Source of the DNA: Hyphomicrobiaceae bacterium
Lineage (GTDB): Bacteria; Pseudomonadota; Alphaproteobacteria; Rhizobiales; Hyphomicrobiaceae
NCBI GenBank assembly: GCA_035440865.1
Contig: DAORNH010000002.1
Span: forward strand, 1-54,537
Length of the DNA: 54,537 bases
Direction of reading: 5' to 3'
Part shown: piece after piece, positions 215 through 24,814 of the stretch
Layout of the letters: each line of letters starts with the position of its first letter
Numbering within the stretch: position 1 is the stretch's first letter
Translations under genes and position numbers: made by a program
Notes under the pieces: model-generated
The model's database searches: none
The model's input: only the letters and a program-made list of their open reading frames with translations
What the model was told of the DNA's origin: nothing

Positions 215-224
215 AGTCTTCCAT

Positions 225-689: not shown

Positions 690-699
690 TTTGATCTCC

Positions 700-1921: not shown

Positions 1922-1929
1922 CCGCGAAA

Positions 1930-2451
1930 CTATTCAATAGTCAAACTCGGGAAAACCAGCATAGCCTCATCATCGACGCATGCATTGGCATACAGGATAA
2001 CGCTCAAGCGCAGTTTGCCGTCCGCAGGATTCCACCAAGCGCCGCCAAACTTCCCAAAACTCACATACGGCAGGCCCTCCCGAGTCTCAACCTCGCCGAT
2101 CAGGGTTATCGTCAGTTTGCCTTCGACTCGCGTAAGGGAATAGTCTGGGAAGGTCATTCGGTCGGCGCTCAAGACGCGATTGTATACCTCCCATCCAAAA
2201 TAGGATTTCATATCGCGGTTGCTGACATCAAGATTTTCAAGGAGATACGCTTCATCGAGATCAAATGGGGCGTTCTTTATTTCGAGAACAACCTCCATTT
2301 TGTCACCACTTGTATAATTTCCCGTTTTCAAGACTAAGCTCGAACCTTCTAGACCAGTAATCGCTGGGCATTCTTGTCTGCAACCGGCTGCCAACACAGT
2401 CGCGAGCACGACGAATGCCAGACTGCGGACCCTCCTTTGTGTACCGATCAT
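1930..2451 (-). CDS. Lipoprotein, putative immunity protein for rhs cassette 2
   Basis: Lipobox LAAGC follows a signal sequence. The start overlaps the cassette 2 stop (4-nt overlap). AT-richer composition. Confidence 0.6.
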   Translation of the reverse strand: MIGTQRRVRSLAFVVLATVLAAGCRQECPAITGLEGSSLVLKTGNYTSGDKMEVVLEIKNAPFDLDEAYLLENLDVSNRDMKSYFGWEVYNRVLSADRMTFPDYSLTRVEGKLTITLIGEVETREGLPYVSFGKFGGAWWNPADGKLRLSVILYANACVDDEAMLVFPSLTIE

Positions 2452-3812
2452 CGGTAACCTCCGCTACAAATGACACTGCCGTTGCCGCAAAGAATGGCTG
2501 CCTTCCAGCGCGGGTACACCTCAATGCCGGTCAGATCAAGGTAGTCAACGATCTTGGCTCCAGGGCCTGTGAACACGTCCCATTTGTAAGTCAGGTCCGC
2601 CCATGCACCCACCCTGTTTGAGAAAATGTCTTCTGCCATGAAAGCGGAATCCAGTTGTTGCTGAAGTTGATCGAGCTCGATTGCTCCCATCATCAATTCG
2701 CTCGATGGGCCAGCTCCAAACGCCTCATATGCCGAGACAGCGTGTTGAAGATCGAACCATCCTTCAGAAGTGAGTGTGTAGCGGGAGTCGCGTGGCACCC
2801 GGAGTCCTGCCATCAGGCTGATGTCTTCAGTGTAGGATGACTCATCGGCAGCCTTGTCTATCACTGATGCCAAATTCTGAGGTTCGACGTATGAACTTAG
2901 TCGGCTGCCTTCAGTGAGGTATGGTACGATTGCAGCGGCGCCCGCTTTAACGGCACCGCCTGCAAATTCTACCACCTTTCCCGGCCCCGACCCTGCAAAC
3001 ACCGACTGGCCAAGGCCATAGATAGACAAGGCCGTGCCGACGGCGGTTCCCGCTCCGGGAGAGAGATAGTCAAGGCCGCGCAGTAGCCCTTCGGTCAGCA
3101 CAGTTTCGATCAGCGTGCTGACAAACGCACTTGCGCTGATCTCGCCTAACAAGAACTGTGCGAACGGGATGATCAGTCCGATGAACGCTCCACTGGGATC
3201 GGTGTGGGCGACGGGATTTCCGAGGCCATAGGTATAGAGATTGAGCGACTGCTTGTAGCCAACGGGGTCCACCTGCATGAACCGGCCCAGCATCGGCATG
3301 TAGGTGCGGGCGCGGGCATAATAGATGCCGATCTCGCGGTCATATTGATGGCCGGTATAGCCGAAGATCGTGGGGATCGATCCGGCAGTCACCCCATAAG
3401 GCGAGTATTTCGCCTGGCCGGTGATCGCGCCATCATTGCTGGCGGTGGCGATGATGGAGCCAAGGCGATCCGCATGCAGAAAGGTCTTTGCACCTGTGGC
3501 GCGTTCCACCACCAGGAAGGGCGTCGAGGCCCCCGGCGCATAGATGAACCGCCGCAGCAGGGCCGAGACATCCCATAGGCCCGAGAACTCCGCGACCGTG
3601 TTCTCGCCATCCGCGAAGAAGAAGCTGGTGCGCGTGCCCGCCGGGCCGCTGATCGTCAGCCGGTCGCGCCTGCCCGCCGGGTCATAACCCATGGTGGCGG
3701 AACCGTTCATGCCCAGCCCAATCTTCGGAAGAGGGGCCGCCCAGACCACCGCCGAGGTCATGCGGAAAATGTCAGGTGATTGCCGTTCTTGTACAGCTTT
3801 TGTTCGCACCAC
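2448..3812 (-). CDS. Orphan rhs C-terminal cassette 2: a few YD repeats, the core end and a variable toxin domain
   Basis: GYDPAGRRDRLT YD repeat, then the same core end (...RFMQVDPVGYKQSLNLYTYGLGNPVAHTDPSGA), then a unique C-terminus. Confidence 0.85.
   Translation of the reverse strand: MVRTKAVQERQSPDIFRMTSAVVWAAPLPKIGLGMNGSATMGYDPAGRRDRLTISGPAGTRTSFFFADGENTVAEFSGLWDVSALLRRFIYAPGASTPFLVVERATGAKTFLHADRLGSIIATASNDGAITGQAKYSPYGVTAGSIPTIFGYTGHQYDREIGIYYARARTYMPMLGRFMQVDPVGYKQSLNLYTYGLGNPVAHTDPSGAFIGLIIPFAQFLLGEISASAFVSTLIETVLTEGLLRGLDYLSPGAGTAVGTALSIYGLGQSVFAGSGPGKVVEFAGGAVKAGAAAIVPYLTEGSRLSSYVEPQNLASVIDKAADESSYTEDISLMAGLRVPRDSRYTLTSEGWFDLQHAVSAYEAFGAGPSSELMMGAIELDQLQQQLDSAFMAEDIFSNRVGAWADLTYKWDVFTGPGAKIVDYLDLTGIEVYPRWKAAILCGNGSVICSGGYR
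3186..3606. repeat. rhs core-end homology block, copy 2
   Basis: Same shared DNA as copies 1 and 3. Here the RHS coding sequence continues upstream. Confidence 0.85.
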
Positions 3813-3824
3813 CCCGGAGCCCTA

Positions 3825-4139
3825 TCAATATTTCATAAAGGTAAAAATAACCGCTATCATGACCAACACAAGAGATAATATAAATATCACTCTGAACACG
3901 TAAATACTTATAAGAATAAAACCATCAGTTTCTCTGATTATTTTTCTCGAAAGCAAAATGAACCGATAAACTCGAAGCGAACCCGACCAATTGTAAACAA
4001 AATATCTACCGAGGCTGCGCTCCTGTCGGAACTCAGGATGAACAATCCAAATGATGAGGTCTACAAAGAAACCAAATACCATTGTTCCACAAAGTAAAGC
4101 AACAGACCACACAACAGAATCGAATTCCATTTTATTCAT
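3825..4139 (-). CDS. Small multi-pass membrane protein, putative immunity protein for rhs cassette 3
   Basis: 104 aa with hydrophobic helices (VVWSVALLCGTMVFGFFVDLIIWIV; ILSLVLVMIAVIFTF). Clearly AT-rich. Lies directly downstream of cassette 3. Confidence 0.55.
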   Translation of the reverse strand: MNKMEFDSVVWSVALLCGTMVFGFFVDLIIWIVHPEFRQERSLGRYFVYNWSGSLRVYRFILLSRKIIRETDGFILISIYVFRVIFILSLVLVMIAVIFTFMKY

Positions 4140-4147
4140 CCTCCATA

Positions 4148-5371
4148 TTACTTAAAGACGTTCTTTTTATACACGCCGAGAAAAGTACTATAACCAGCCG
4201 TTGGTCCGTCAACGCTCAGCGAGATGTAGTATGCTGAAGTGTCGGGATTGTAGTAAAATGTCCCGGTGAACGAAACGGGCAGGATCGGGTGAATTTGGCC
4301 AGTGACCGTGGCAGCAAGCCCCCAACCAGAAGGGTCGCGCCTCTGTGCCTCGAAAAGTGTAATTGAGCCTGCAAAGTCTGGCTTCGCGGACGCGCCAGCA
4401 CCAATGCCCAGTCCATAGTCTGTCGTCCCATCGCTGTTAACTTGCAAGGTCAAAGCGCCGTAATAGCCTACTGTTCCGGACACGCTGGCATTTTCTGCTA
4501 GACTGTCGAGAGCGTCATCGATGGTGCAGGAGATAAAGCACCGCCTCATTTCGGCATGATCACGCTGGACGATATTTTCTAAGTACCAGTCGTCAGGATC
4601 GAGTGGGTCATGCTTTGGCGTCTGGAATCCGTAGCCTAGGCCGACTCCATCGCCAACACCGAAATGGCCAGACAGCCCACCCCCATTGACCGGGCCCCCA
4701 TGGGCTGCGTTCTTTATTGCTCCCGCGCCACCTCCAAACCCGGGCGAGGTGATGAATCCGACCACGGTTCGCACGATGCCCAGCACCTGGCCTGCGCCGG
4801 GTATCAGCATGTCGAGCCCGCGTGTGACGAGTTCGCCAATCGCGATCTCGGCAATGGTACTCAGGAACGCGGTTGCTGTCAGCTCGCCAATGGCAAATTG
4901 GATCGCCGCAATGCCCAACCCGATGAAGAACCCCCCGCTCGGATCCGTCCCCGCCATGGGGTTGCCCATGCCATAGGTATAGAGGTTGAGCGACTGCTTG
5001 TAGCCAACGGGGTCCACCTGCATGAAGCGGCCGATGAGCGGCATGTAGGTGCGGGCGCGGGCATAATAGATGCCGATCTCGCGGTCATATTGATGGCCGG
5101 TATAGCCGAAGATGGTGGGGATGGAGCCCGTGGTCACCCCATAGGGCGAGTATTTCGCCTGGCCGGTGATCGCGCCGTTGGCGTTCGCAGTGGCGATGAT
5201 GGAGCCAAGCCGATCCGCATGCAGGAAGGTTTTGGCGCCCGTTGCGCGTTCAACCACCAGGAAGGGTGTGGAAGCGCCCGGCGCATAGATGAACCGTCGC
5301 AACAGCGCACTGGCATCCCACAGGCCGGAGAATTCGGCCACGGTGTTTTCGCTACAAGCGCGGCCAGGCAA
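4148..5371 (-). CDS. Orphan rhs C-terminal cassette 3: core end plus a variable toxin domain, 5'-truncated
   Basis: ENTVAEFSGLWDASALLRRFIYAPG...DPSGG is shared with cassettes 1 and 2. The C-terminus is unique and Gly-rich/beta-rich. The first 7 codons are unrelated to RHS. Confidence 0.85.
   Translation of the reverse strand: MPGRACSENTVAEFSGLWDASALLRRFIYAPGASTPFLVVERATGAKTFLHADRLGSIIATANANGAITGQAKYSPYGVTTGSIPTIFGYTGHQYDREIGIYYARARTYMPLIGRFMQVDPVGYKQSLNLYTYGMGNPMAGTDPSGGFFIGLGIAAIQFAIGELTATAFLSTIAEIAIGELVTRGLDMLIPGAGQVLGIVRTVVGFITSPGFGGGAGAIKNAAHGGPVNGGGLSGHFGVGDGVGLGYGFQTPKHDPLDPDDWYLENIVQRDHAEMRRCFISCTIDDALDSLAENASVSGTVGYYGALTLQVNSDGTTDYGLGIGAGASAKPDFAGSITLFEAQRRDPSGWGLAATVTGQIHPILPVSFTGTFYYNPDTSAYYISLSVDGPTAGYSTFLGVYKKNVFK
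4931..5353. repeat. rhs core-end homology block, copy 3
   Basis: Same shared DNA. Homology stops at the same codon (G-ENTV) as in copy 1. Confidence 0.85.
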
Positions 5372-5639
5372 AGTGCGAAGCGGTTCGCCGTCCGGCCGCG
5401 CGTTCTCAGCCTGAGATACAAGCTGAGTTGGGTGCCGGTATGGACACTCAGAAAATGGCGGAGCCGGAGTCCGAAATAGGATGATTCATCAGCATACGTC
5501 CTAGTTTCAATTCGTTCGGGAATGTAGTAAAAGACTGGCATTCGCGGTGGGTGCCGGTTTCTGCGTGTACGCAGCCGTTTCCCTGAATCCGCGCCCGATA
5601 ATGGGACCAGAATGTGGGCCCGAAAGGTGACGGACAATT

Positions 5640-6899
5640 ATGGCGCGTGCCTTGAACAAGCTGAGTGCCCGGGCAGTTGCTACCCTTCGCACGCCGGGCC
5701 GTCATGGCGATGGCGGCGGCCTCTATCTGGCCATCTCGGCCGATGGCACGCGGCGGCGCTGGGTGTTTCTGTACACGCTGAGAGGCCAGCGGCGGGAAAT
5801 GGGTCTGGGTGCAGTGGCGGACGTGTCCCTCGCAGAGGCCCGCGAGAAGGCGATGGAAGCCCGCCGGATAGTCAAGGCAGGCACGGACCCCATCGCGGCC
5901 CGGGAGGCCACCAAGGCCGCCACGCGGGCGACTGAGGCCGCTGAGAGAGCAATCGTTACCTTTGGGGCCTTTGCAGACGCCTATGTGGATCGGATGAGCC
6001 CGGCTTGGCGGAACGAAACCCACCGGGAGCAGTGGCGCACGACCTTGCGCGTTCACGCCGCAGTGCTGCGGGACATGCCGATTGACGGGGTGGATACCGA
6101 TGCCGTCTTGCGGGTGCTGGAGCCTATCTGGAACCGTATCCCCGAAACCGCTGCCCGCTTGCGCGGGCGGATCGAGAATGTGCTTGATGCAGCCAAGGTG
6201 CGGGGTCTGCGCACTGGCGAAAACCCGGCACGGTGGCGCGGGCACCTGCGCAACATCCTGCCAAAGCGCCAGCGCTTGACGCGTGGCCACCATGCAGCCA
6301 TGCCCTTCGCTCAAGTGCCATCCTTCCTGAGTGCCCTGCGTGCCCGGCAGTCAACCGCCGCACGCGCACTGGAGTTCTGCATTTTGACGGCGGCCCGTAC
6401 GGGCGAGGTCTTGGGGGCGCAATGGGATGAATTTGACCTTGATGCGGCTATCTGGACGGTTCCGGCCACGCGCATGAAGGCCCAGCGCGAGCACCGGGTG
6501 CCGCTTTGTGCGCGGGCGGTGGTAGTCATCCGCGAGATGGCGTTGGCCAGAATGGGCGCGCACGTCTTTCCGGGCCATCGCGCGTCTGGCCTGTCCAACA
6601 TGGCGATGGCTAAAGCGCTGGAAGCAAGTGGACAAGGTGCCTTCACCGTGCACGGCTTCCGGAGCAGCTTCCGAGACTGGGCTGCCGAGGCCACCAGCTT
6701 TCCCAGCGACATTTGCGAAATGGCACTTGCGCACACGATTGGCAACAAGGTGGAAGCAGCCTATCGGCGGGGTGATCTCTTCAATCGCCGCCGCGAATTG
6801 ATGGAGGCATGGGGCCGCTATTGCGCGGATGCTGAGCGCGGCGTGATTCGGCTGGTCGACTTGCCGAAAGACGCATTGCGCAATAAAATTGCGAGCTAA
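5640..6899 (+). CDS. int: Tyrosine recombinase/integrase, P4-like with an N-terminal Arm DNA-binding domain
   Basis: N-terminus LSARAVATLRTPGRHGDGGGLYLAISADGTRRRWVFLY (DUF4102-type). C-terminal catalytic region HGFRSSFRDWAAE...LAHTIGNKVEAAYRRGD. Confidence 0.92.
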   Translation: MARALNKLSARAVATLRTPGRHGDGGGLYLAISADGTRRRWVFLYTLRGQRREMGLGAVADVSLAEAREKAMEARRIVKAGTDPIAAREATKAATRATEAAERAIVTFGAFADAYVDRMSPAWRNETHREQWRTTLRVHAAVLRDMPIDGVDTDAVLRVLEPIWNRIPETAARLRGRIENVLDAAKVRGLRTGENPARWRGHLRNILPKRQRLTRGHHAAMPFAQVPSFLSALRARQSTAARALEFCILTAARTGEVLGAQWDEFDLDAAIWTVPATRMKAQREHRVPLCARAVVVIREMALARMGAHVFPGHRASGLSNMAMAKALEASGQGAFTVHGFRSSFRDWAAEATSFPSDICEMALAHTIGNKVEAAYRRGDLFNRRRELMEAWGRYCADAERGVIRLVDLPKDALRNKIAS

Positions 6900-7081
6900 G
6901 TCTGACGCGTGCCCATCATCGGGCATCAAGAGCTTGCTGGCAAAAACCGCATGATCCCCCAACCCTGCCAATTTTACGGGCGCGGGGAAAAGGCTGCTCC
7001 TCACGCTTGCAAATTTCAGCTGCTCGCACTCTTTCTGGGTCGCGCGTGTACCGCCGCGCACACACATGGAGAGGCAGACGA

Positions 7082-7990
7082 ATGGGCAGCACCAACGGGC
7101 GCGAAACATATCGCCGCGCAAAGAAGCGGCAAAAGTCACTCTCACCTGACCATATCATTGGAACAGTGGGCGCATACTGGGAAGGCGAGACCCACAACTT
7201 CACCAAAGAGGACTTTGCGGAGCTGCATCGGCTGGCTAAGCGGGCGGGGTCAAAGGCGACGCTGGAAGAAGTCCACGACCGGGCAACCCAAGTTGCAGGC
7301 GAAGTGCATGAGGTGCTGCACAATCTGACAGGTGTCATGCCAGCGAGCGAGCGGGCGAAGAGTGCATCGCTGATCCACTCGGCAATTGGCCAGATTGAAC
7401 GGGCGCTGGGCTACTATCAATGGGATGAGGATGCGCTATGGCGAACGAACGGTGCGGGCGGTTCAATCGCTATGCTGGAGCGATTGGCAAGCCATGCCTT
7501 TGTGCAGACCAACAAACTGGACCGGGAAGACGCGCAAAATTTGCGAAAAGATGAAACCGCAATCTCACGGAGGCTGCGGGCGCTGCAAATCGGAGTGCCC
7601 TATAAGGGCGAGTTGCCACCACCGCGACATTGGCGGGGAATTGCGATTGACAGCGCCATCAACACTCTTCCGGTGCGCCTCAGAGTCCTTCGCCTCGCAT
7701 GTGAGAGTTTCCTGCAAGCCCCGCCTGCAAAACGCCCGCGCGTCAAGACACTCCGGCTGGGCGATAGATTCATCCGCTCTGCCAGTGACGCATGGCGAGA
7801 ATTGACCGGCAAGCGGACGCGTTACATCAATCTCGAATTTGCAATGGTGCTCGCCCGGGGAATTGGAATGTCCGTGAGCAAAGATGCTCTCAGAGGCCTG
7901 ATTTACCGGGAAGCAAAGCGGCTTGCTGGGCCTGTTGGCAACAAAATCCCGATCCCGGCCATCACCGCAGCAGCAAACCGGCAAGTTTGA
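7082..7990 (+). CDS. Hypothetical protein, paralog A of a tandem pair
   Basis: Start taken at the internal ATG (MGSTNGRETYRR). Shares collinear motifs with the next gene (W..E.H.F..DFAE.H; LP..L.VL.LAC..); no family recognised. Confidence 0.55.
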   Translation: MGSTNGRETYRRAKKRQKSLSPDHIIGTVGAYWEGETHNFTKEDFAELHRLAKRAGSKATLEEVHDRATQVAGEVHEVLHNLTGVMPASERAKSASLIHSAIGQIERALGYYQWDEDALWRTNGAGGSIAMLERLASHAFVQTNKLDREDAQNLRKDETAISRRLRALQIGVPYKGELPPPRHWRGIAIDSAINTLPVRLRVLRLACESFLQAPPAKRPRVKTLRLGDRFIRSASDAWRELTGKRTRYINLEFAMVLARGIGMSVSKDALRGLIYREAKRLAGPVGNKIPIPAITAAANRQV

Positions 7991-7994
7991 CTCA

Positions 7995-8903
7995 ATGCCG
8001 CTGCGATCAAGAAAGCCGCCACGGTACAAAAGGCCAACCCGCCTGGAGCGGATTCGGTCGGTACAAGACAGGCCCGAAGGACCCGCCGGGCGACTTTGGA
8101 ATGATGAAAAGCACTTGTTCAATGAAGCCGACTTCGCAGAATTTCATGCGATTGCGCAAGGCGGAGGGCGAGATATGTCCCTCCGACGCGTAAGGCAGAT
8201 CGTGACCCGGGCGGCGATCAATTTCTACGATGACCGGATTCTGGGTGCCGACAAGATGACACCTGGCGAAAAAGTAAGGCATGTCGAAGCGATACGCCGC
8301 GCTGTCAGAGAACTTGAGGGCCGGATTGGCATAGAGGTGATTCCTGAAGGCGAGAAAGTCGCCTCTGGAAGCCGCTCCCAGATTCTCGGTGAGCTGACCA
8401 TCGAAGCTCAGAAATTGGAGCGTTCTTTGGATTTGGGGTGGTTGGCCCGAATTGACAAGAGCACGCTCCAGATCGCGAGGACCCTTCGGTCCATCGCCGA
8501 GCGCCTTTGCCGGAAGTCGCCACTCGACGTCCCCGGACACAACCCGCGCAGCGGCAAGCTGTATGACATCATGGCATTGTTGCCGACATATCTTTGCGTG
8601 CTGTCACTTGCCTGTGACGCATGGCTTCTGAACCCGCCTGAGAAGCAGCCAAAGCGCGCACTTGGTTCGGTGAATAGGACTTTCCTCCATGCCGCAAATG
8701 GGGCGTACCAGCAAATCACGGGCTTAAGTCTCAGCCGCTCCCGCCAATCCATTGCTTTTGCTCGCAGAATGGCCGGCGGGATGGGCTTTGATATTACAGA
8801 TCCTGCCCTCCGAAGCCTTCTGTCCCGCAACCAAGCCGGGACGACCAAGGGCTACCAAGTCCGCCGCCGTGCTCAAACTGCCAAAAAAACAGTTCCAGTT
8901 TGA
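7995..8903 (+). CDS. Hypothetical protein, paralog B of a tandem pair
   Basis: Starts at MPLRSRKPPRY, 5 nt after the paralog A stop. Same length class (~302 aa) and the same motif order as paralog A. Confidence 0.55.
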   Translation: MPLRSRKPPRYKRPTRLERIRSVQDRPEGPAGRLWNDEKHLFNEADFAEFHAIAQGGGRDMSLRRVRQIVTRAAINFYDDRILGADKMTPGEKVRHVEAIRRAVRELEGRIGIEVIPEGEKVASGSRSQILGELTIEAQKLERSLDLGWLARIDKSTLQIARTLRSIAERLCRKSPLDVPGHNPRSGKLYDIMALLPTYLCVLSLACDAWLLNPPEKQPKRALGSVNRTFLHAANGAYQQITGLSLSRSRQSIAFARRMAGGMGFDITDPALRSLLSRNQAGTTKGYQVRRRAQTAKKTVPV

Positions 8904-8979
8904 GCCAAGACAAACAGCGCGGCCATCGGCAACCTTCTGCACATCAGCCGGTTCGTCGGCGATTCAGGAGAGACACGAC

Positions 8980-9186
8980 ATGACCAATTCGGACATTTCA
9001 GCTGCGAAGGATCGCGAGGCCTACTCGATTGCGGAAGCCGCAAAGTTATGGGGGATCGGCCGCACAAGCCTTTACCGCGCCATGTCTGAAGGCCGTTTGC
9101 GCACCCTGAAAATCGGTGCGCGGCGCCTTGTACGGCGAGGCGATTTAGAGGCGTTCATGGAAGCGCATGCAACGCCCACTCCCTAA
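8980..9186 (+). CDS. AlpA/excisionase-family helix-turn-helix DNA-binding protein
   Basis: 68 aa. YSIAEAAKLWGIGRTSLYRAMSEGRLRTLKIGARRLVRRGDLEAFME is a typical MerR-superfamily Xis/AlpA HTH. Confidence 0.8.
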   Translation: MTNSDISAAKDREAYSIAEAAKLWGIGRTSLYRAMSEGRLRTLKIGARRLVRRGDLEAFMEAHATPTP

Positions 9187-9267
9187 GCCAAGAAGGCGGA
9201 GCGGCATCTATCGCGCCTGAAAATTACAGCGAAATTCAGGCATCAATTTTCATGGTCGAAGGCGCCA

Positions 9268-9825
9268 ATGGCTGGCAGACACAATGCAACCGGCCGCAGC
9301 ACAGGCGGCATGACCGCGCGCGACCGGAAAATCCATGGTCCGCCAAAAGGCAGCCCCTGGGTTTGGCTCCCCACAGAACTGCTGAATCATCTGGCCTGGC
9401 GCAGCCTTTCGCTCAATGCCCGGAAGATCATCGACTTCCTCTTGATCGAGCACAGACACCACGGAGGCCGGGAGAATGGCAATCTCGCCGCACCTTACAA
9501 CCAGCTTGAGAGATTTGGGGTCAGCCGCCGGCTCATCAGGGCGAGCTTCCTTGAGCTTGAGGCCGCCGGACTTGTGCGGATGACAAGACAAGGCGGCAAA
9601 TACGCCGGCGGACGTGAGACCTCAACCTATCGCCTCACATTTTATGCCGCGCATGACAACGTCTCGCCAACCAGCGAGTGGCGGCGATCCGATGGGGCCA
9701 AAGTGAAGGCGGCAAGAAAGGACGCGGCCGAGAACAAGAGCCGGGCATCCGAAAACCGGCGCGGGCGGCGCGCCAATCCCGATTTGGAGTGCACCATGGT
9801 GAACCTTGAGAGTGCACCTTCGTGA
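9268..9825 (+). CDS. Hypothetical winged-helix-like protein, island regulatory or replication-associated
   Basis: LSLNARKIIDFLLIEHRHHGGRENGNLAAPYNQLERFGVSRRLIRASFLELEAAGLVRM resembles a wHTH. Its 3' end carries the repeated palindromic 17-mers. Confidence 0.5.
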   Translation: MAGRHNATGRSTGGMTARDRKIHGPPKGSPWVWLPTELLNHLAWRSLSLNARKIIDFLLIEHRHHGGRENGNLAAPYNQLERFGVSRRLIRASFLELEAAGLVRMTRQGGKYAGGRETSTYRLTFYAAHDNVSPTSEWRRSDGAKVKAARKDAAENKSRASENRRGRRANPDLECTMVNLESAPS

Positions 9826-13305: not shown

Positions 13306-14331
13306 CTAATCATGAAAGCCTCCTTCCATGAGCGAGATAAGCAGATCTTCGATCGCCTGGTCATGGTCTTCGGGCGGATACCAAATCGGATGAATGTCCG
13401 CCTGGCCAAGCTCGTTCCGCCTGGCTTCACGGTCCATACCTTCGCTCAGCGGTAAGAAAGCGTAGTGGCGAGGCGTCTCTACGACGGCGTCCTGTTTTAT
13501 TTCACGGAGCGCATAAACCGTTCGATCCACCGACAGACTACATCCGAGAAAGAGCAAGCTTGTATTGGCAATCAGCAGCTTGAAAAGCTCTCGATAGTTG
13601 CCGCCGTCTCCATAGCAGGCTGTGTATTCCCCGCCGGTGAGAACGCGGCCTTGAGCGCTATCTGCTTCACCATGAAGCCGGAGAAGGCAATGAGGTTCAT
13701 CCGCAAGCCTTCGCGGTGCCTCATTCAGTCGAGTCCCAGAGAACTCGCCCTTCAGGCGGCAATCGGAAGCTTCATAGACGCGGTTCAGGACATAGTCGAA
13801 GTTCGTTGTCAGGCAACCACGTTTGAAGATCAGCGGAAGCAGTTGTACCGGTCCCCTCAAGGCCTTCACGCGTGAGCCGAACGCATTTTGAACCGCCTCG
13901 GCAAAGACATCTGGTCCCATACGATCAAGCACCAGCTGAGCCGCTTCTTCGTATCGATATGCCGCCAGGTGGGCGCGAACGTCGTCGGCAATAGCGGGAT
14001 AGTCTGCGGTCAATCCTGCTAGAAACGCGCCCCATAAAGGAAAGCCTGTCGGCCGCGAAAGGCCCGCCCCGACAAACGGGATAACGCTTTGTCGTTTGAG
14101 CTGCGTGTGCAGCCGGTTGAACCGATCAAGGCAATTGAACCGCTCAAGGAACTCGCGCGCGCGATCCATGGCGTTCTGTTTCTGGCTTGCAACCCAGTCC
14201 AGAAAATGCGCCTCGTAGTCGAGCGGCGCCATCGTCTTAAGGACATCGGCGGGAGGCCATTCAAAGGTCCGGACGGTGACTAGGCCCTCATCGTTGAGCT
14301 CTTCGACGAAGCGCTGACGGAAATACTCCAC
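13306..14331 (-). CDS. SIR2-like (SIR2_2-type) domain protein embedded in the R-M operon
   Basis: Motifs VIPFVGAGLSRPTGFPLW, CLTTNFDYVL, LLRLHGE and SLLFLGCSLSVD appear in SIR2_2 order. GTG start with a GGAGGTG Shine-Dalgarno. 12 nt after the hsdS stop and 48 nt before hsdR. Confidence 0.75.
   Translation of the reverse strand: MEYFRQRFVEELNDEGLVTVRTFEWPPADVLKTMAPLDYEAHFLDWVASQKQNAMDRAREFLERFNCLDRFNRLHTQLKRQSVIPFVGAGLSRPTGFPLWGAFLAGLTADYPAIADDVRAHLAAYRYEEAAQLVLDRMGPDVFAEAVQNAFGSRVKALRGPVQLLPLIFKRGCLTTNFDYVLNRVYEASDCRLKGEFSGTRLNEAPRRLADEPHCLLRLHGEADSAQGRVLTGGEYTACYGDGGNYRELFKLLIANTSLLFLGCSLSVDRTVYALREIKQDAVVETPRHYAFLPLSEGMDREARRNELGQADIHPIWYPPEDHDQAIEDLLISLMEGGFHD

Positions 14332-15559: not shown

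Positions 15560-15567
<8 letters not shown>
14344..15567 (-). CDS. hsdS: Type I R-M specificity subunit
   Basis: Two target-recognition halves separated by a conserved helical spacer ([30 protein letters not shown]) and a C-terminal [12 protein letters not shown]. The ATG start overlaps the hsdM stop by 8 nt. Confidence 0.9.
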
Positions 15568-17374
<1,807 letters not shown>

Positions 17375-17570: not shown

Positions 17571-20500
17571 TCATTCGAGGACAGTGTAAACTTGGCTCGG
17601 CATTTTGTCGCCGCAAAGAGTTTTCTCGCGTTTCGCCTTCCAAGCCTTTGCGCGATGTTTCAGCTTGCTGTGGATACTGGGCTCGAACCATCCTATCGCT
17701 GCGCCACTACGCGGAACCGAGGTTTTCCACAATCCGACTCGCGCATCGACAATCTTGAGAAACAGGATGCTGAACGCCCAGAACTCTTCGGGAGAATTGG
17801 TGGCGCACATCTTTTCGAACCAGTGCCGCGCCCAGCGGTTTCGATCATATGCGAAGCGCGCCGCCTTCGCCGCGTTACCGATCAGACCTTTGGCGTCCGC
17901 ATATCGGTCCAGCAACGCTTCGGATGTGGTTGATTCCATGCCGAAGCCGATCACCATGAGAGCCCGTGCATTGGCAGCAGGTTCAGGGCGTTCCAAATTC
18001 TTGCGCGCGTACTGTTCAAGGAACGCTGCCTCCCCGGCCATTAGGGCCGCCAGCACCTCTTGCGCCAACTGATGGTCATTCGCCGCGCGATCCAGCCGCT
18101 GCGCCCGCAGCTCATCCAGCGCGCCGCCATCGGCACTCTCCCAGATGCAGATGGCCTCAAGCGACACGCCCGAGAGGCCGGACACCAGGCTGACGAAAGC
18201 CCGCCTGCCTGAGAGGCGGTCGAACAGTTTGCGGGCGAGCGTCAGGTCGTGGCGGGAAACCGACCTTGCCAGCATCAAGGCGAAGTTCTGGACGTGCATG
18301 AGCTTGCGATCGTCCAGGCCAAGGAGCTGTCCGACCAATGCGGCGCAATGATCCGGCGATGTCGAAACGCACGCATCGACCGCTTCAAAGCCCACGTCCT
18401 CCAGGATGAGCCGCGCCTTTTCATTCGTTAGCGCCGTCTCAAACCGATTGTACGCCTCCCACCCCTGGCGCTGGCGCGCTTCAAAGTCTTCCGGCGTTTC
18501 AGACAGGCGCTTGAAGAATGCCTCGGGGCCTAAGACTTCATCGGGCTCCGCCAACGACAGGAGCGGCGGGATCGGACGGCCTGCCATCTCCATGTCCTGC
18601 TCAACAGAAGGCGGCAAGAACGGCAGTTCAATATCAATCGCCTTTGCGGCTGCTGCGGTGAGGCGCGCGGCAATTGCCGCGTGGCACTCCGCTCCGAGCA
18701 CCTCCGCCGCGACGCTGCAGAGGCGCGGGGTAGTCCTGTCCAACGCCTCATCGGCGCTGATCATCCCTTGCTCGGCCGCATTGATGACAATGAGCGAGCC
18801 ATACCAAATCTCGAAGTGGTTCTTCCGAGGATCGAGCAAGGCGGCGCTCCATCCGGTAGCTATCACCCTTTCGATCAGATCGCGGTCTTTCAAGTGCGCG
18901 ATAATGTCCATTGCTTCCGCGCGCACTGACGATCGCTCATTCTCCGCGAACTGCCCGACGAGAGTCCGGCTGCGCGGGGTCAGAATCGTGCCGGAGCACC
19001 GCGCGAACAACAGCGCGACAAGTGCCCTGTTGTGCTCGGCCGACTGCATTGCTTGATTCAGCGACCATTCCAGCTTCTCGGGCATCGCCGGCTTCAGCAC
19101 TTCGGCCAGCTTGAGCAAGGGTGGGCCGTGAGACGGCAATGCGGCCAGGTGGTCGAGCTGCCGATCGCCACCCAGGTGGGGGAATGCGATCTGGATGGCA
19201 TATTGCGAAGCGATCCAGTTATCGTGGGAGTCCTTGGATTCTGGCTCGCGCGGCGAACTAAGCGTATTTGCGATTTCAACGAGCTTGCCAACCGTCTCGG
19301 AATCCAGCGCTGCGCAATGCGGCTCCAGCAAAGTGATACCTCGCATGAGCTCCGCTGATTCGCGGGCGACGATTGATCGTGCGATTTTGCGCTGGGCCTC
19401 GATCGCCACTTCCGGCGCGAACCGGACCAGCCCCGGAAGCGCGTCCCTCACAAAGTGATCCTCCTCGCCCATAGAGGCGTGGCGTGCCACTTCTTCAGCA
19501 TCGACTTGCGAGTATTTATCGGCGGTCACATCGAGATTGTCCGGCTTTGTGGATGCAGGATCACAAGGATCGGTGGCACAGTATTTTTCGACGAGCCTCC
19601 ATCCCCCGAATTTCTCCCGATCCTTGGTAAGCGCCTCGATGAGCTGCTCTGCGCGCCCGGCGTCCTCGACGGTGCTGATGCCCCGCAAGATCGCCACCAG
19701 CGCCCATTGGCCCGTCTGCGATGTATCCTTCTGCGCCAGGAAATCCGACGCCTCAAGGAGCAGCTTCCGCGTCTCCTGCCAGTCACGGCGGTTGTAACGG
19801 ATCAGCGCGAGATACTCGTCGTATGGCGCCCGGAAGCTTGAATTGAGGGCACGCGAAAAACTGCACGCGACAAGCTGCTCGGCAAAGCCCGCCAGCGGCA
19901 TCCCGGCCAGCATCTCGAAGGCATCCTGATGGAGCAGCGAAGGATCGTAACCCTTGCACTGAAGCATGTTCCTTTCGAGGAACACTCGTTCCGCCGCGGA
20001 CAGCTCCGCCATTTTCCGCGCGAGCGCTTGGATCTCCTCCTCCGTGTCCTTGGCGACCTTATCATCGCTGTCGTGGCCGGGGGTGCTCATCACGCCGATT
20101 TTCGGATCGAGGGAATAGGAGCGGAGCCAGTTCGACACATGCTTGCTGATGATCGCCCAGCATTCCGGTTTGTGTCGGCACTTACGCAGGGCCGCCGAAA
20201 GCCAGTCCTTGTTGGCTGCATAGCGGGAGTTCGCCGCCGAGAGATCGAACAGCGCCAACATCGCCGCATCCGTCGCGTTGCGCGCGACGGCGACAAACGC
20301 CGGGTAGTTCTGCGCGTCGACATTCTGGAGACGCAGGAAACCGCAAATGAGAGCGCGCCTGATCGCCAGTGAGCATTGCTCATCGATGCTGGACACCATG
20401 ACGCCGGAGAAAACCGCATCGGCGGTCTTGTCGAGGGCAGCGATCGGCTCAATCAGCTCGTCCAGCGCATCGGCCACATCGCGCCCGTTGCGCTCGGCCT

Positions 20501-22259
20501 TCTGCAGCGCCTTGATGATCGAGAGGCCGAGCGCCAGCGAAAGCCCGCCATCGGCAAGAGCATATAGAGTGGAATCCTCCGGGAGCGGCCGGAAGAAATG
20601 CTCTGCTGTGACGGCGAGAAGGTCGGCGCTCAGGGCGTGTCCGCCTTTGCCGTCGGCGCGGTCGAAGATCAACCGGTCTTCGCGCTGTTGCTGCTTCACT
20701 CGGTCGATTATGTCCTGGGCGTGTTGCGCCAGCCGCTTTGAGAATTGATCCGGCGGCTCCGCAGCGTTCCCGTCGTGCGCGCCGACGCGGATATGCTCGA
20801 AGAGCAGTCTTTCCACGCTCAGCTCGTCGAAGTTCTTAACCTCGACCTTGTCCAGCAGGTCGAAAGCGATCCCCAGAATGCGTGGGTTGCGGAGCCGCGT
20901 GAGCACCGCCGGTTTAATCTTGCTCGCGTCGATGCCTTTGGCCACGAGAATCTCTTTCAGTTCCCGCTCCGTCCATTCCGGTACGCGTACGGTGGCGATC
21001 TTGGAATGCACCGCAGAGCGTATGCGCTCGTCAAAATAGCTCTCGCGCGAAGTTATGGTGAGAGTACCGCCTAGCTGCTCAACGACCATGGCGGCGTCAT
21101 CAAGCCATCGCGGCCAGTCAAATCCAGGCTGCTGGTTGAGACCGTCGACACACAAGATGAAGCGGGGCGATGCCTCGTTTGCCTGCTCCTTCCATCGCGC
21201 GAGCCGCCTTTCCCAGCGTTTGCGGGGGATTTCCGTGTCGCTGTCGTCAGTCTGCTGGATCAGCTTCGAGGTCAGAAAGGGCGTGAGGCTCCCGTACGCC
21301 GCAACCGGCTTGAGGTCGGTCGCCGGGATCACGACCAGCAGCGGGCGGACGCCAAGTTCAAGCCAGCTCTGCGCAAGCAGCCATGATTTTCCGCTTCCTT
21401 CTCCTCCGACGAGCGCCACGATCTTGCGCGAGGGGGCCGCCGACAGATGCTGATGAACTTGCTCCACGATGGCGGAACGTTGCCGAAGCGAGAGCGCTCC
21501 TTCCGCGTTCGGTGCGAGAACCTGGCCGAAGGCTGCCTTGGCGCGCCGCCGATCCGCGAAAACAGCCTCAAGCCACTTTGCATTGGCGCTCCTCGCATTG
21601 GCCTGTCCAAGCGAGGATTCCTGAAGCTTCTGGACAAGAGCATCAGCGCTTGCGCGAAACGTTTCCGCTCTCTGGATTGCGGCGAGCGCCGCTTCCGCCC
21701 TCTCAACGCATTCAACTTCATTGAGGTGTTTCCTAAGAAACACGGAGGTTTCTTCGCTCGCGAGAGCGCAAGCGGCGGCCAGCGGCGGAATGGCGGAAGC
21801 GCTTGGCCAGTCCAGCACAAGTATGCCAATGCCGTTCTTGGCGGCGGCGGTATGCATTGGGTCGAGCAATTGCGTGCTTGCCTCGACCGTGGCGCCGAAA
21901 ACCCACACGTCAGGCGGCGCGCCGCTGCCGATCAACCGCGTAATCTTTGTCAGAACCTCGTTATCGTTGATCTTTTTATTGTAAAGCTTGCCCTCAAAGG
22001 AGATGTGATTGCTCGCAGTAGAGGATGTCGCGCCGTCTTTCCCATTCTGCAGGCCGGATTTGGCCAAACGAAAATCCTGCCCGGACGCTTTACTCAAAAC
22101 GCACGCGAGAAGGCCCTCAAAACCCGCTGGTCCCGCAGGTTCAAGGCTGAGCAACGCATCGCGCAGGTGGCCCACGTGCTTCGAAAGAAGATGGTTGCGG
22201 GCTTCCGTCCCCTTTGCTGAACCGTCCGTGTCAGGAGCGTCGCTCTTGTTGCTGGTCAT
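17571..22259 (-). CDS. Giant defence-type protein with an N-terminal PD-(D/E)xK (Mrr-like) nuclease, a P-loop STAND-like NTPase and a ~1100-aa helical C-terminal region (Avs-like architecture)
   Basis: FEGLLACVLSKASGQDF...NGKDG...ISFEGKLY matches the D...ExK pattern. Walker A is VALVGGEGSGKSWLL and Walker B is RFILCVDGLNQ. Start set at the ATG for MTSNKSDAPD. The ORF track extends it to 22415. Confidence 0.7.
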   Translation of the reverse strand: MTSNKSDAPDTDGSAKGTEARNHLLSKHVGHLRDALLSLEPAGPAGFEGLLACVLSKASGQDFRLAKSGLQNGKDGATSSTASNHISFEGKLYNKKINDNEVLTKITRLIGSGAPPDVWVFGATVEASTQLLDPMHTAAAKNGIGILVLDWPSASAIPPLAAACALASEETSVFLRKHLNEVECVERAEAALAAIQRAETFRASADALVQKLQESSLGQANARSANAKWLEAVFADRRRAKAAFGQVLAPNAEGALSLRQRSAIVEQVHQHLSAAPSRKIVALVGGEGSGKSWLLAQSWLELGVRPLLVVIPATDLKPVAAYGSLTPFLTSKLIQQTDDSDTEIPRKRWERRLARWKEQANEASPRFILCVDGLNQQPGFDWPRWLDDAAMVVEQLGGTLTITSRESYFDERIRSAVHSKIATVRVPEWTERELKEILVAKGIDASKIKPAVLTRLRNPRILGIAFDLLDKVEVKNFDELSVERLLFEHIRVGAHDGNAAEPPDQFSKRLAQHAQDIIDRVKQQQREDRLIFDRADGKGGHALSADLLAVTAEHFFRPLPEDSTLYALADGGLSLALGLSIIKALQKAERNGRDVADALDELIEPIAALDKTADAVFSGVMVSSIDEQCSLAIRRALICGFLRLQNVDAQNYPAFVAVARNATDAAMLALFDLSAANSRYAANKDWLSAALRKCRHKPECWAIISKHVSNWLRSYSLDPKIGVMSTPGHDSDDKVAKDTEEEIQALARKMAELSAAERVFLERNMLQCKGYDPSLLHQDAFEMLAGMPLAGFAEQLVACSFSRALNSSFRAPYDEYLALIRYNRRDWQETRKLLLEASDFLAQKDTSQTGQWALVAILRGISTVEDAGRAEQLIEALTKDREKFGGWRLVEKYCATDPCDPASTKPDNLDVTADKYSQVDAEEVARHASMGEEDHFVRDALPGLVRFAPEVAIEAQRKIARSIVARESAELMRGITLLEPHCAALDSETVGKLVEIANTLSSPREPESKDSHDNWIASQYAIQIAFPHLGGDRQLDHLAALPSHGPPLLKLAEVLKPAMPEKLEWSLNQAMQSAEHNRALVALLFARCSGTILTPRSRTLVGQFAENERSSVRAEAMDIIAHLKDRDLIERVIATGWSAALLDPRKNHFEIWYGSLIVINAAEQGMISADEALDRTTPRLCSVAAEVLGAECHAAIAARLTAAAAKAIDIELPFLPPSVEQDMEMAGRPIPPLLSLAEPDEVLGPEAFFKRLSETPEDFEARQRQGWEAYNRFETALTNEKARLILEDVGFEAVDACVSTSPDHCAALVGQLLGLDDRKLMHVQNFALMLARSVSRHDLTLARKLFDRLSGRRAFVSLVSGLSGVSLEAICIWESADGGALDELRAQRLDRAANDHQLAQEVLAALMAGEAAFLEQYARKNLERPEPAANARALMVIGFGMESTTSEALLDRYADAKGLIGNAAKAARFAYDRNRWARHWFEKMCATNSPEEFWAFSILFLKIVDARVGLWKTSVPRSGAAIGWFEPSIHSKLKHRAKAWKAKREKTLCGDKMPSQVYTVLE

Positions 22260-22918
22260 TAGGCATCTCAACCTGAATCTATTGACGGAAGCGGAAGTCT
22301 CACTGGAGTAGACAAACTTCGGCGCGGTATTTCGAGCGTGAGCCGCGCCGCGTGGCCCAACTTGTCGAGGAAACAAATCGATAAAGGAGTTGGCCGACGT
22401 CAATCCATGCAACAATGACCGGGCAACGATTGCGTGGTGAGCAGCGATAAGGCAGTTTGGCAGTTCAAGCTATTGGGTTGATCGGCATGTGGCATGTATG
22501 CGCCAATGGGTCCGCTTTGACCAATCGCGGTTCATTCAATCTCGCGTCACTCGGTCGGCTTTCGGATTGAATAAAAAACTTGTTCCGGCACAAGTAGGAA
22601 AGGGGAACGTGTGCGCCGCCGTGCCAACTTATGCGGAACTATTCGGGGCCACCGATTCCGATTATTGCGGGAAATCGAAAATAGAAATAGGGGCCGGAAG
22701 TGGGGCCAGGCGCGTGAAAAAGCGAAAAACTTAGTCAAATCAATGGTAGATGGCGGAGGGGATGGGTCTGATATCCAACCTTCTCTGGCGCGGCTCTACT
22801 CCGAATTGCACAGGTTCCGCAAGCTGGCTCGTGCGTAGATCCGGCAGTCGTCCCTTCACCGATTGCCCGCGGCAATCCTAATCTCGACTTATTGCGCTGA
22901 CAGGAATAGCTTGACCTT

Positions 22919-23257
22919 ATGAGCAAGCTCGTCCGCATATTCGCGTTCGTCTTTCTCGCAGCCTTCGCTGCGGGCACGGCGGCGAATGCGGCGGCTGCTA
23001 CCCAAATGTCGCTGATGATGTCCATGGCAAATATGGACGACGGCGGTATGGCGGACTGTCAGGACTGTCCCGGCGATGACGCTCAGACGTCGGCATGCGA
23101 CCAGTTCTGCGTGACCACCCTAGCCGCGATCTGCACGCCTGCAGGGACAGTCCTGCCGAATGTCACGGATGTCGTGGTGATCGGTACCGCGGCATCGCCC
23201 GGTGGTCGTGTCGGGCCGCCCGATCCCTATCCTCCCCGAACCATACACATGGGCTGA
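22919..23257 (+). CDS. Small secreted Cys/Met-rich protein, possibly metal-associated
   Basis: Signal peptide MSKLVRIFAFVFLAAFAAGTAANA, then MSLMMSMANMDDGGMADCQDCPGDD..CDQFC. First gene of the copper operon. Confidence 0.4.
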   Translation: MSKLVRIFAFVFLAAFAAGTAANAAAATQMSLMMSMANMDDGGMADCQDCPGDDAQTSACDQFCVTTLAAICTPAGTVLPNVTDVVVIGTAASPGGRVGPPDPYPPRTIHMG

Positions 23258-23350
23258 AGCGGCCGCGGCAAGATCGCTCGCAGCCGACCGTCGACGCGCC
23301 CTGGCTACGCTCCGCGCGTCACATCAGGCTATTCCACGGACGGTTGATCC

Positions 23351-24814
23351 ATGTCCTATCCACGTCTTCCGGCGCTGACGCGTCGAGCCTTCCTCGCATC
23401 AGCCGCCGTTGTCTCGGCGAGCACGATTCTTCGATCGCAAGCCCGCGCGACGAGCGTTCGGGCGTTCCACTTGCGCGCCGGATACGGTCGGGCCCAGATC
23501 GCACCCGAACCCTACGGCCAGACACCCGTCTGGTGCTATGACGGGAGCCTGCCTGGCCCGGAGATCCGCGTCCGTCAGGGAGAACGCCTGCGGATCGCGG
23601 TCGCGAACGCGTTAGACGAGGAAACGACAGTGCATTGGCACGGCGTGCGCGTCCCGAACGCCATGGACGGCGTGCCTCACCTCACTCAGGCGCCGATCGC
23701 GCCCGGCGAAGTATTCGTTTATGAGTTCGACGCAGTCGATGCGGGCACCTTCTGGTATCACCCGCACCATCGCAGCTTTGAGCAGGTCGGACGCGGTCTC
23801 TACGGCCCAATGATCGTGGAGGAAGCCGTTCCGGTCCAAGTCGACCGCGATCTCACGTGGCTGCTGTCCGACTGGCGGCTGACCAGATCGGCGGAGGTGC
23901 GGGATGATTTCGGCAACCGCCACGACATGATGCACAACGGCCGGGTGGGCAACACGGTCACGATCAACGGCCGCGTGCCAGATACCTTTCCTGTGCGCAA
24001 GGGAGAGCGCATTCGCCTGCGCCTGATCAACGCCGCCAACGCACGGATCTTCGGTCTCGATTTCGGGAGCCATGAGCCCGTCGTCATTGCGCTCGACGGA
24101 CAGCCGGTCGAGCCGCATGCGCCGGAAGGTCGGCTGGTGGTCCTCGGACCCGCCATGCGCGCTGACGTCATCCTCGACATGACCGCTGATGCAGGAAGCC
24201 AGGTTTCCGTGGTGGATCGTTTCTACGAGGGGCTGGAGTACCGTCTGGTTGATCTTGCCTACGAGAAGCAGCCGCTGAGGGACACGGCACCAGACTGGCC
24301 GCTCGCCCTCCCGCCAAACCCGCTGCCGGAGCCAGAGCTCGCGACGGCCGCCCGTCACGAGGTCACCTTCAACGGCGGCATGATGGGAGCCATGGTCATG
24401 CAGGAGATGGGCGGCAGCATGGGAGAGGCCGCGCCGGGAGGCATGATGGGCGGGATGGGCTCGATGATGAACATGATGCATTCCGGCGGCATCTGGTTCG
24501 TCAACGGCGTGGCGGCGGAAGGTCACATCATGGACCCGATACTGACGCTGGCGCGGGATAAAAGCCATGTCATCGCGATGACGAACGCGACGGCCTGGCA
24601 TCACCCGATCCACCTGCACGGCCATTCCTTCCGGGTGATCTCCCGGAACGGCAAGCCGACCCGCCACCGCGAATGGCAGGACACGGTGCTCATGTCACCT
24701 CGAGAGCGCGTCGAGATCGCTTTCGTCGCCGACAATGTGGGCGACTGGATGCTCCACTGCCACGTTCTCGAACATCAGGCCGCAGGAATGATGGGTGTCT
24801 TCCGCGTCGCCTGA
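23351..24814 (+). CDS. Multicopper oxidase (CopA/PcoA-type) with a Tat signal and a Met-rich insert
   Basis: Twin-arginine leader LTRRAFLASAAV. Copper ligand motifs HWHG, WYHPH, HPIHLHGH and HCHVLEHQAAGMM. Met-rich loop MMGAMVMQEMGGSMGEAAPGGMMGGMGSMMNMMH. Confidence 0.92.
   Translation: MSYPRLPALTRRAFLASAAVVSASTILRSQARATSVRAFHLRAGYGRAQIAPEPYGQTPVWCYDGSLPGPEIRVRQGERLRIAVANALDEETTVHWHGVRVPNAMDGVPHLTQAPIAPGEVFVYEFDAVDAGTFWYHPHHRSFEQVGRGLYGPMIVEEAVPVQVDRDLTWLLSDWRLTRSAEVRDDFGNRHDMMHNGRVGNTVTINGRVPDTFPVRKGERIRLRLINAANARIFGLDFGSHEPVVIALDGQPVEPHAPEGRLVVLGPAMRADVILDMTADAGSQVSVVDRFYEGLEYRLVDLAYEKQPLRDTAPDWPLALPPNPLPEPELATAARHEVTFNGGMMGAMVMQEMGGSMGEAAPGGMMGGMGSMMNMMHSGGIWFVNGVAAEGHIMDPILTLARDKSHVIAMTNATAWHHPIHLHGHSFRVISRNGKPTRHREWQDTVLMSPRERVEIAFVADNVGDWMLHCHVLEHQAAGMMGVFRVA

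Follow-up and report, generated by a model that had tools for sequence, protein, structure and literature searches.

Which kind of protein is encoded by the giant gene that lies beside a type I restriction-modification (R-M) operon in a Hyphomicrobiaceae bacterium, and does it belong to that operon or act on its own? We analysed a window, i.e. the whole stretch of 54,537 nt of contig DAORNH010000002.1 (GCA_035440865.1), and all coordinates given below are positions in this window. The gene very probably encodes a stand-alone sensor-nuclease of the Avs type (bacterial NLR-like proteins), i.e. an antiviral STAND protein, from an uncharacterised family. An initial annotation of the same DNA had proposed an Avs-like succession of effector, STAND NTPase and large repeat sensor, and the structural models and domain hidden Markov models (HMMs) both agree with this architecture, dividing the protein into residues 30-155, 156-260, 261-700 and 701-1562.

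A giant gene with a four-part product

The gene is a single open reading frame (ORF) on the minus strand, running from 22259 to 17571. An ATG at 22259 yields 1562 residues (1562 codons plus the stop codon at 17571-17573), close to the roughly 1560 residues first estimated, and the frame is open from a TTG at 22415. The motifs that had been quoted for the nuclease, for Walker A and for Walker B are all found, in the order claimed: FEGLLACVLSKASGQDF corresponds to residues 47-63, GKDG to 73-76 and ISFEGKLY to 86-93, with the P-loop about 195 residues beyond the nuclease motif (about 200 had been given). The tail, described as helical and rich in Leu and Ala, is indeed all-helical, with 14% Ala and 11% Leu. 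A full-protein search returned 507 clusters of homologues, more than 100 of which are full length (∼1520-1570 residues) at 37-82% identity; since these keep E48, D75, E89, K91, G288, G290, K291, D372, G373 and N375 invariant or nearly so, the pattern of motifs lies far beyond chance. Structure prediction, used to delimit the domains, gave two confident AlphaFold2 models built on 102-sequence alignments, one of residues 1-700 (predicted local distance difference test, pLDDT, 90.4; predicted template-modelling score, pTM, 0.86) and one of residues 641-1562 (pLDDT 92.0, pTM 0.91). The features of the gene are as follows.

17571-22259, minus strand: complete coding sequence for a predicted Mrr-like nuclease, helical linker, STAND NTPase and alpha-solenoid sensor (ORF translation, homologues, uniform four-part architecture)
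21795-22172, minus strand: predicted N-terminal Mrr-type PD-(D/E)xK nuclease domain, residues ∼30-155 (AlphaFold model, conservation, weak Mrr_cat and REase matches in relatives)
22116-22118, 22035-22037 and 21987-21995, minus strand: predicted catalytic residues E48, D75 and E89-x-K91, respectively (conservation, model)
21480-21794, minus strand: conserved helical linker, residues 156-260 (helices 159-244 in the model; separate HMM match in all loci)
20160-21479, minus strand: predicted STAND NTPase module, residues 261-700 (Foldseek, domain matches in members, motif conservation)
21384-21407, minus strand: Walker A or P-loop motif GGEGSGKS, residues 285-292 (translation, alignment of 102 sequences)
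21132-21161, minus strand: Walker B motif FILCVDGLNQ, residues 367-376 (translation, family pattern hhhhDGLN(Q/E))
17574-20159, minus strand: putative C-terminal sensor, a HEAT-like alpha-solenoid, residues 701-1562 (AlphaFold model, Foldseek)
19542-19601, minus strand: invariant non-helical insertion WRLVEKYCATDPCDPASTKP in the sensor, residues 887-906 (alignment of 43 sequences, model)

A predicted Mrr-type nuclease and a helical linker

In the model of the N-terminal half, the first domain consists of a helix (47-59), three strands (63-65, 76-78 and 86-91), a second helix (99-110) and a last strand (118-123), which is the alpha-beta-beta-beta-alpha-beta order expected of a PD-(D/E)xK core. 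The first helix carries E48 and the third strand E89-x-K91, and D75 is found where the second strand starts. An alignment of 102 sequences keeps D75, E89 and K91 without exception, and E48 in 101 of them; more broadly, G46-F-E48-G, D75 and E89-x-K91-x-Y93 are invariant or nearly so in alignments of 43 and of 102 sequences. When N-terminal domains of ten relatives were searched in isolation, Mrr_cat (PF04471) was the only recurring Pfam family, matching five of the ten in register (best 3.1e-4, 21.3 bits for a cut-off of 21), and the same domain of the window copy stayed below detection, with no Mrr_cat match. An Argonaute-associated REase-TIR model of PADLOC matched 5 of 31 family members (best 4.7e-6). 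The order of the elements, the placement of the four residues in the model and these weak matches in relatives all agree with the PD-(D/E)xK core of Mrr type that had been read from the motifs, and support the prediction of a nuclease in this position.

The stretch between nuclease and P-loop had been taken for a coiled-coil-like region. It is modelled instead as a helical linker bundle (residues 156-260, made up of helices 159-244) that is conserved in the family.

An NTPase of NLR-like fold

Residues 261-700 are laid out as a P-loop alpha/beta nucleotide-binding domain followed by a helical domain, a winged helix and further helices, with an LRNPR motif (residues 456-460) in the helical domain, LLFEHIR (485-491) in the winged helix and a beta-hairpin at 556-568. 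A Foldseek search of PDB with the model of residues 1-700 returned as its top match 8dgf, the structure of Avs4 bound to the portal protein of phage PhiV-1 (E 1e-8), in an alignment of ∼750-770 columns for the 700-residue query, i.e. over nearly its whole length. It was followed by NLRC4, NLRP2, NLRP3, NLRP7, NLRP14, Apaf-1, CED-4 and Dark (NLRC4, NLRP and Apaf-1 at E 5e-7 to 2e-5). ORC/Cdc6 and other AAA+ proteins ranked below these NLR-like matches. Among the 31 members scanned against Pfam, 15 matched AAA_16, 7 NACHT (best 2e-7) and 2 nSTAND1 (3.6e-6). The window protein itself reached NB-ARC, nSTAND5 and AAA_16 only at a loose cut-off (E 0.04-0.4), and NACHT (PF05729) did not match it at E up to 0.01. 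Judged by predicted fold and by the domain matches of its relatives, the NTPase is of STAND and not of housekeeping type, as had been claimed.

The motifs of the module are strictly kept. In 102 sequences G288, G290 and K291 of the P-loop (GxxGxGK(S/T)) are invariant, and so are D372, G373 and N375 of Walker B; position 376 is Q in 72 sequences, among them the window copy, and E in the other 30. The sensor-1-like R405 and the winged-helix H489 are kept in all or at least 93% of this set, and G285, (S/T)292, W293, L456, N458, P459, R460 and E488 are invariant or nearly so in both the 43- and the 102-sequence alignments.

A HEAT-like solenoid as putative sensor

The remaining ∼860 residues (701-1562) are modelled as an uninterrupted alpha-solenoid of ∼45 helices with a few short beta elements, and HEAT_2 of Pfam matched 5 of the 31 members (best 4.3e-6). 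The closest folds of the C-terminal half were karyopherins, CAND1, Pds5 and SF3B1 (E ∼3e-5 to 1e-3, template-modelling (TM) score ∼0.2); the best 50 PDB matches were all eukaryotic HEAT solenoids, with no Avs chain among them. The most conserved stretch of the sensor is WRLVEKYCATDPCDPASTKP, with the pattern WR..E.YC..DPCDP at residues 887-901. Here E891, D897, P898, C899, D900 and P901 are invariant in 43 sequences, and W887, R888, Y893, C894 and P906 are conserved to at least 90%. Residues 887-906 sit within a long loop between helices, and both cysteines (C894 and C899) are part of this non-helical loop. It may bind a metal, act as a hinge or make an autoinhibitory contact.

Effector exchange on a fixed chassis

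Domain HMMs recovered one and the same layout of four parts in 83 of 85 homologous loci. The two exceptions, from Pseudomonas fluorescens (L073 and L077), keep the NTPase and the sensor and carry an unrelated helical region in their first ∼200 residues, which has no Pfam or PADLOC match (9401-10030 in L073). Two further relatives of 1792 residues (P0210 and P0223) have an N-terminus of ∼470 residues (1-470) that resembles Rossmann-type FAD/NAD-binding proteins, with weak DAO and Pyr_redox_2 matches. Homology to the swapped variants begins at residue 220 (L073) and residue 234 (P0210) of the window protein, and both types thus share one junction (...AKWLEAVFADRRRAKAAFGQ...). The last ∼30-45 residues of the linker, from about residue 220-234 on (...FADRRRAKAAFGQ...), remain attached to the NTPase in members with an exchanged effector. 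The N-terminal effector is modular on a fixed chassis of NTPase and sensor, and swapped members are rare. Effector swapping on a fixed chassis has also been described for Avs families (PMC13601566, PMC13581612).

The Rossmann FAD/NAD-binding-like N-terminus of P0210 and P0223 is an unusual candidate effector. Two other relatives (P0218 and P0121) have an extra helix-turn-helix (HTH) domain ahead of the nuclease.

Distribution of the family

A search with the sensor only (residues 701-1562 as a single sequence against 1.84 billion representatives) gave 713 clusters at 50% identity with E up to 1e-3, and 302 with E up to 1e-30. Among its 150 best matches, the sensor is found at the same place in proteins of ∼1530 residues. 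Relatives were found in 138 GTDB species in a scan of one genome per species. Among them are members of the Alpha-, Beta- and Gammaproteobacteria, Desulfobacterota, Acidobacteriota, Gemmatimonadota, Bacteroidales, Pirellulaceae, a metagenome-assembled genome of Thermotogae and plasmids of Candidatus Manganitrophus. The distribution is patchy, with an abundance of members in Alphaproteobacteria and in many other phyla. Thirteen plasmid records carry homologues, phage genomes yielded none, and no enterobacterial member is present among the 80 listed genome loci or the homologues with a named source. In UniRef the homologues are called 'hypothetical' or occasionally 'NACHT domain-containing protein', and bear no other name. 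Defence inventories of marine, soil and rhizosphere bacteria made with PADLOC v2.0, Pfam and NCBIfam would omit this family.

Genomic neighbourhoods of the relatives and of the window copy

All-against-all clustering of 1116 ORFs from 82 non-redundant loci led us to reject a conserved partner gene, the largest neighbour family being present in 6 of the 82 loci and consisting of integrases. The single-gene system that had been claimed is in keeping with this: given that there is no conserved neighbour and that hsdM was met once in 85 loci (see below), the gene is a self-contained module. The neighbourhoods are rich in defence and mobile-element genes. In ten chosen loci, none of which served in another part of the analysis, we looked at one large ORF each, in most cases the nearest to the homologue and otherwise near-nearest, and seven of these ten were strong PADLOC matches (a type III methyltransferase, MkoA, GajB twice, PDC-M68A, PDC-S41 and PglX). 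Gabija is represented in L005 (in the adjoining gene), L053 and L060, Mokosh MkoA in L030, BREX PglX in L062 and the type III methyltransferase in L023, while MkoC-like helicases and SoFic recur elsewhere. Integrases, relaxases, IS66 transposases and recombinases are frequent neighbours as well.

Some of these loci have peculiarities of their own. Directly beside the homologue in L010, L022, L032, L044 and L051 lies a second giant P-loop protein of ∼1700 residues (e.g. 4619-9745 in L044) with weak matches to PADLOC PDC-M54A (5.5e-6) and AAA_16; two NLR-like genes may form a recurrent pair here. L003 and L004 (3804-9943) show a casposon-like arrangement, in which a solo Cas1 is found ∼2 kb from a 1017-residue protein with a weak family-B DNA polymerase match, the latter immediately upstream of the homologue. 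A DUF4238 protein of 234 residues is placed tail-to-tail with the homologue, 45-79 bp downstream on the opposite strand, in L028, L033, L034, L076 and L085, loci of Sphingomonadales type. L076 is labelled Arthrobacter and shares its gene layout with L033, a Sphingomonas locus, pointing to contamination or a recent transfer.

In the window, hsdM (15560-17374) is on the same strand and starts 196 bp past the stop of the giant gene, followed by hsdS, a SIR2_2 gene and hsdR. The initial annotation had placed the gene directly upstream of the R-M operon; this is correct as far as the co-orientation, the 196-bp distance and the position 5' in the direction of transcription are concerned, but it does not extend to the family, in which hsdM is nearby in just 1 of 85 loci. 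A tblastn search of the 85 loci with hsdM, hsdS, SIR2, hsdR and the integrase of the window found an hsdM homologue within 10 kb in that one locus, and homologues of hsdS, hsdR and SIR2 in none, and a linkage with the R-M genes was rejected. Since the gene is a self-contained module and hsdM was found within 10 kb only once, its position beside the R-M operon is a co-location within an island and not a conserved link, and no operon is shown. No terminator-like site was found in the gap between the gene and hsdM by a weak consensus tool, a scan of little weight, and promoter and terminator scans at both ends of the gene were uninformative.

The SIR2_2 protein (341 residues, 13306-14331, minus strand), whose gene is inserted into the type I R-M operon after hsdS and before hsdR, matches SIR2_2 of Pfam (2.6e-18) and, in PADLOC, LmuA (5e-17) and ThsA (1.5e-12). 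It is probably an extra defence effector of NADase type within the operon.

The giant gene is located in a segment of 55-63% GC that also encodes a tyrosine integrase (5640-6899, plus strand), and copper-resistance genes border this segment at 63-67% GC, the higher-GC side beginning with a multicopper oxidase (23351-24814) and DUF411. The flanks at 1-9825 and 22260-23050 have 53-60% GC. They hold seven sizeable ORFs without a Pfam or PADLOC match (700-1833, 2448-3812, 4148-5371, 7007-7990, 7923-8903, 9268-9825 and 22735-23025), and two smaller ones without a PADLOC match (225-776 and 1930-2451). A comparison of 1-7000 with 22260-23400 detected no direct or inverted repeat of at least 13 nt, i.e. 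no att-like repeat. Elsewhere in the window, GC dips sharply to 48.8% at 50001-51000, with flanks at ∼66-70%, and this part holds only short or overlapping ORFs. Rfam gave no match anywhere in the window, 50001-51000 included.

Proposed mechanism and alternative explanations

Proteins of the Avs kind are tripartite: the sensor binds one phage protein, the ATPase oligomerises on this binding and the effector then kills the cell (PMC13601566, PMC13581612). The generic features of this kind are present here, i.e. a tripartite polypeptide, a sensor of at least 400 residues, a STAND fold with intact Walker A and B motifs, effector exchange and defence genes as neighbours. We rate the family as new, or at least as uncharacterised and unannotated, within the known Avs kind, and infer an anti-phage function for it. 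By analogy with Avs2, Avs3, Avs4 and Avs7, the protein would be an inactive monomer in the uninfected cell, held in this state through contacts of the sensor with the NTPase and nuclease domains. Upon infection, the 860-residue HEAT-like solenoid would wrap around a single copy of some conserved foreign protein, with a phage as its most likely source, and this binding would free the NTPase to form an oligomer in its NTP-bound form, probably a tetramer, bringing the N-terminal Mrr-type nuclease domains into an active assembly. The nuclease would then degrade double-stranded DNA without sequence specificity, and the cell would die or stall before phage progeny are released (abortive infection). 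SeAvs3 tetramerises and degrades double-stranded DNA (PMC13601566; PMC13581612). For the window protein, trigger binding, oligomerisation, DNA degradation and a defence phenotype would all follow from this analogy.

Several observations weigh against this assignment to the Avs type. The window protein has no match in Pfam, PADLOC v2.0 or NCBIfam; its sole annotation match is Hda at 17 bits, far under the cut-off of that model, and phmmer against PDB returned nothing usable. It is the fold, the invariant motifs and transitive homology, and not a direct database match, on which the assignments as nuclease and STAND protein are based. With a profile made from 43 family sequences, a search of the PDB sequences at E up to 10 retrieved only noise, namely TIM barrels designed de novo and P-loops of FtsY. 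The structural alignment with 8dgf shows an identity of only 13% and a low TM score (0.35), the latter because of a re-orientation of domains. As far as the model goes, the fold matches of the sensor are of a generic HEAT/ARM kind and uninformative on the ligand, and the sample of defence neighbours comes without a background statistic. Furthermore, NACHT proteins usually carry an acidic pair after Walker B, and the window protein has N-Q instead. As the motif DGLN(Q/E) is devoid of the usual acidic pair, NTP hydrolysis may be slow, weak or absent. A Walker A mutant abolishes Avs defence (PMC13601566; PMC13581612), and as it is the Walker A lysine that such defence needs, hydrolysis may not be essential.

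Could the protein simply be a divergent, true member of Avs4 that senses the phage portal protein, as EcAvs4 does? The best solved match to its N-terminal 700 residues, aligned over almost the whole query, is that of Avs4, the domain order is the same and the lengths are near-identical (chains of 1534-1541 residues, compared with 1562). Yet the Avs4 models of PADLOC match neither the window protein (at E up to 0.01) nor, at E up to 1, any of the 31 relatives, none of the PDB sequences, that of 8dgf included, is retrieved with the family profile at E up to 10, the sensor model does not bring up 8dgf in its best 50 matches, and the structural identity stays at 13%. Moreover, Avs families can share effector and NTPase types and yet have unrelated sensors (Lee et al. 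2026, PMC13581612). We consider membership in Avs4 very unlikely. That the gene serves the neighbouring type I R-M/SIR2 operon as a functional accessory, e.g. as a co-transcribed nuclease that acts with HsdMSR, is extremely improbable: the co-orientation with hsdM 196 bp downstream and the gap without a detected terminator-like site would fit, but the R-M genes do not accompany the homologues (hsdM within 10 kb in 1 of 85 loci, hsdS, hsdR and SIR2 in none), which have no conserved neighbour family and lie beside Gabija, Mokosh, BREX PglX or a type III methyltransferase.

A STAND-nuclease might also serve in conflicts between mobile elements or in another role unrelated to phages, for example by sensing proteins of plasmids or integrative and conjugative elements, or as an addiction or exclusion module for its own island. 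Homologues often lie beside integrases, relaxases, IS66 transposases and recombinases, 13 of the records are plasmids, the window copy is found in an integrase-bearing segment of lower GC, and defence and non-defence STAND clades are interspersed (Lee et al. 2026, PMC13581612). However, defence islands themselves ride on mobile elements, and such a context is therefore non-discriminating, while a strictly conserved nuclease joined to a huge sensor is the signature of an Avs-type receptor, all known Avs triggers are phage proteins (PMC13581612), and the common form of the family has no HTH or regulatory output domain. This role appears unlikely, and we prefer to regard the protein as an Avs-type sensor-nuclease directed against phages.

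Avs proteins correspond in bacteria to the NLRs of animals and plants, and for each family one conserved phage protein has so far come to light as a molecular pattern. Knowing the trigger of the present family would enlarge the map of phage proteins watched by bacteria by one receptor-ligand pair. No new principle is involved: Avs2, Avs3, Avs4 and Avs7 already provide both the architecture and the mechanism that is likely here. The confident models, the invariant residues and the natural effector-swap variants make the family directly testable. It is tempting to go further, although only tentatively and with doubt: this would be a large family, undetected by current defence annotation and mostly outside enteric bacteria, whose solenoid may recognise a protein of phages or mobile elements beyond the triggers mapped for Avs1-24, and in which the WR..E.YC..DPCDP loop together with DGLN(Q/E) may mark a distinct, possibly hydrolysis-independent switch.

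Comparison with known systems

By sequence, the window protein is a member of neither Avs4 nor Avs2, in agreement with the divergence from Avs1-4 that had been suggested: no Avs model of PADLOC matches it, the Avs2 model matches 2 of 31 relatives weakly (E 0.0065), and no Avs sensor is among the best 50 folds. With EcAvs4 (8DGF, in complex with the PhiV-1 portal) it shares the succession of effector, STAND NTPase and large alpha-helical sensor in one polypeptide of ∼1540 residues, but there is no sequence relationship at the level of HMMs, the identity in the structural alignment is ∼13%, and the Avs4 chain is not among the best 50 matches to its C-terminal model. The N-terminal nuclease of EcAvs4 is reportedly, in the 2022 work of Gao et al., Mrr-like.

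The likeness to Avs2 lies in the Mrr-like effector, the helical linker between effector and NTPase, the alpha-helical sensor and an effector diversity that goes along with horizontal transfer. Most Avs2 members carry Mrr-like nucleases for double-stranded DNA, and in EcAvs2 a helical extension separates the effector from the ATPase (PMC13601566). In contrast to the C-terminal sensor of Avs2, which is rich in beta-strands, the window protein is almost entirely helical to its end, and the Avs2 model of PADLOC does not match it.

Lee et al. described 589 STAND clades, 684 sensor clusters and Avs7-24 from seeds that included Mrr-fused STANDs, and helical repeats of TPR-like type make up most of the sensors (Lee et al. 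2026, PMC13581612). The present family is probably somewhere in this set, given its large size. One of the representatives used there is from Halomonas jincaotanensis (Lee et al. 2026, PMC13581612); a homologue search seeded with a Halomonas-clade copy of our family brought up neither a Halomonas jincaotanensis entry nor a named Avs.

With Mrr proteins (Mrr_cat, PF04471) the N-terminal domain shares the series E...D...ExK on alpha-beta-beta-beta-alpha-beta elements and, in relatives, the weak in-register HMM matches, but in the window protein it is below detection, and it would be a fused effector and not a methyl-dependent restriction enzyme. There is a wider likeness to the eukaryotic NLRs and apoptosome proteins (NLRC4, NLRP3, Apaf-1 and CED-4), which match the predicted fold of its NTPase, helical domain and winged helix (E 5e-7 to 2e-5) and have the same receptor logic of sensor repeats joined to an oligomerising switch. 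The differences lie at both ends and in the switch itself: the effector of the window protein would be an enzyme fused in cis and not a CARD or PYD adaptor, its sensor is modelled as a HEAT-like solenoid and not as LRR or WD40 repeats, and its Walker B motif reads DGLN(Q/E).

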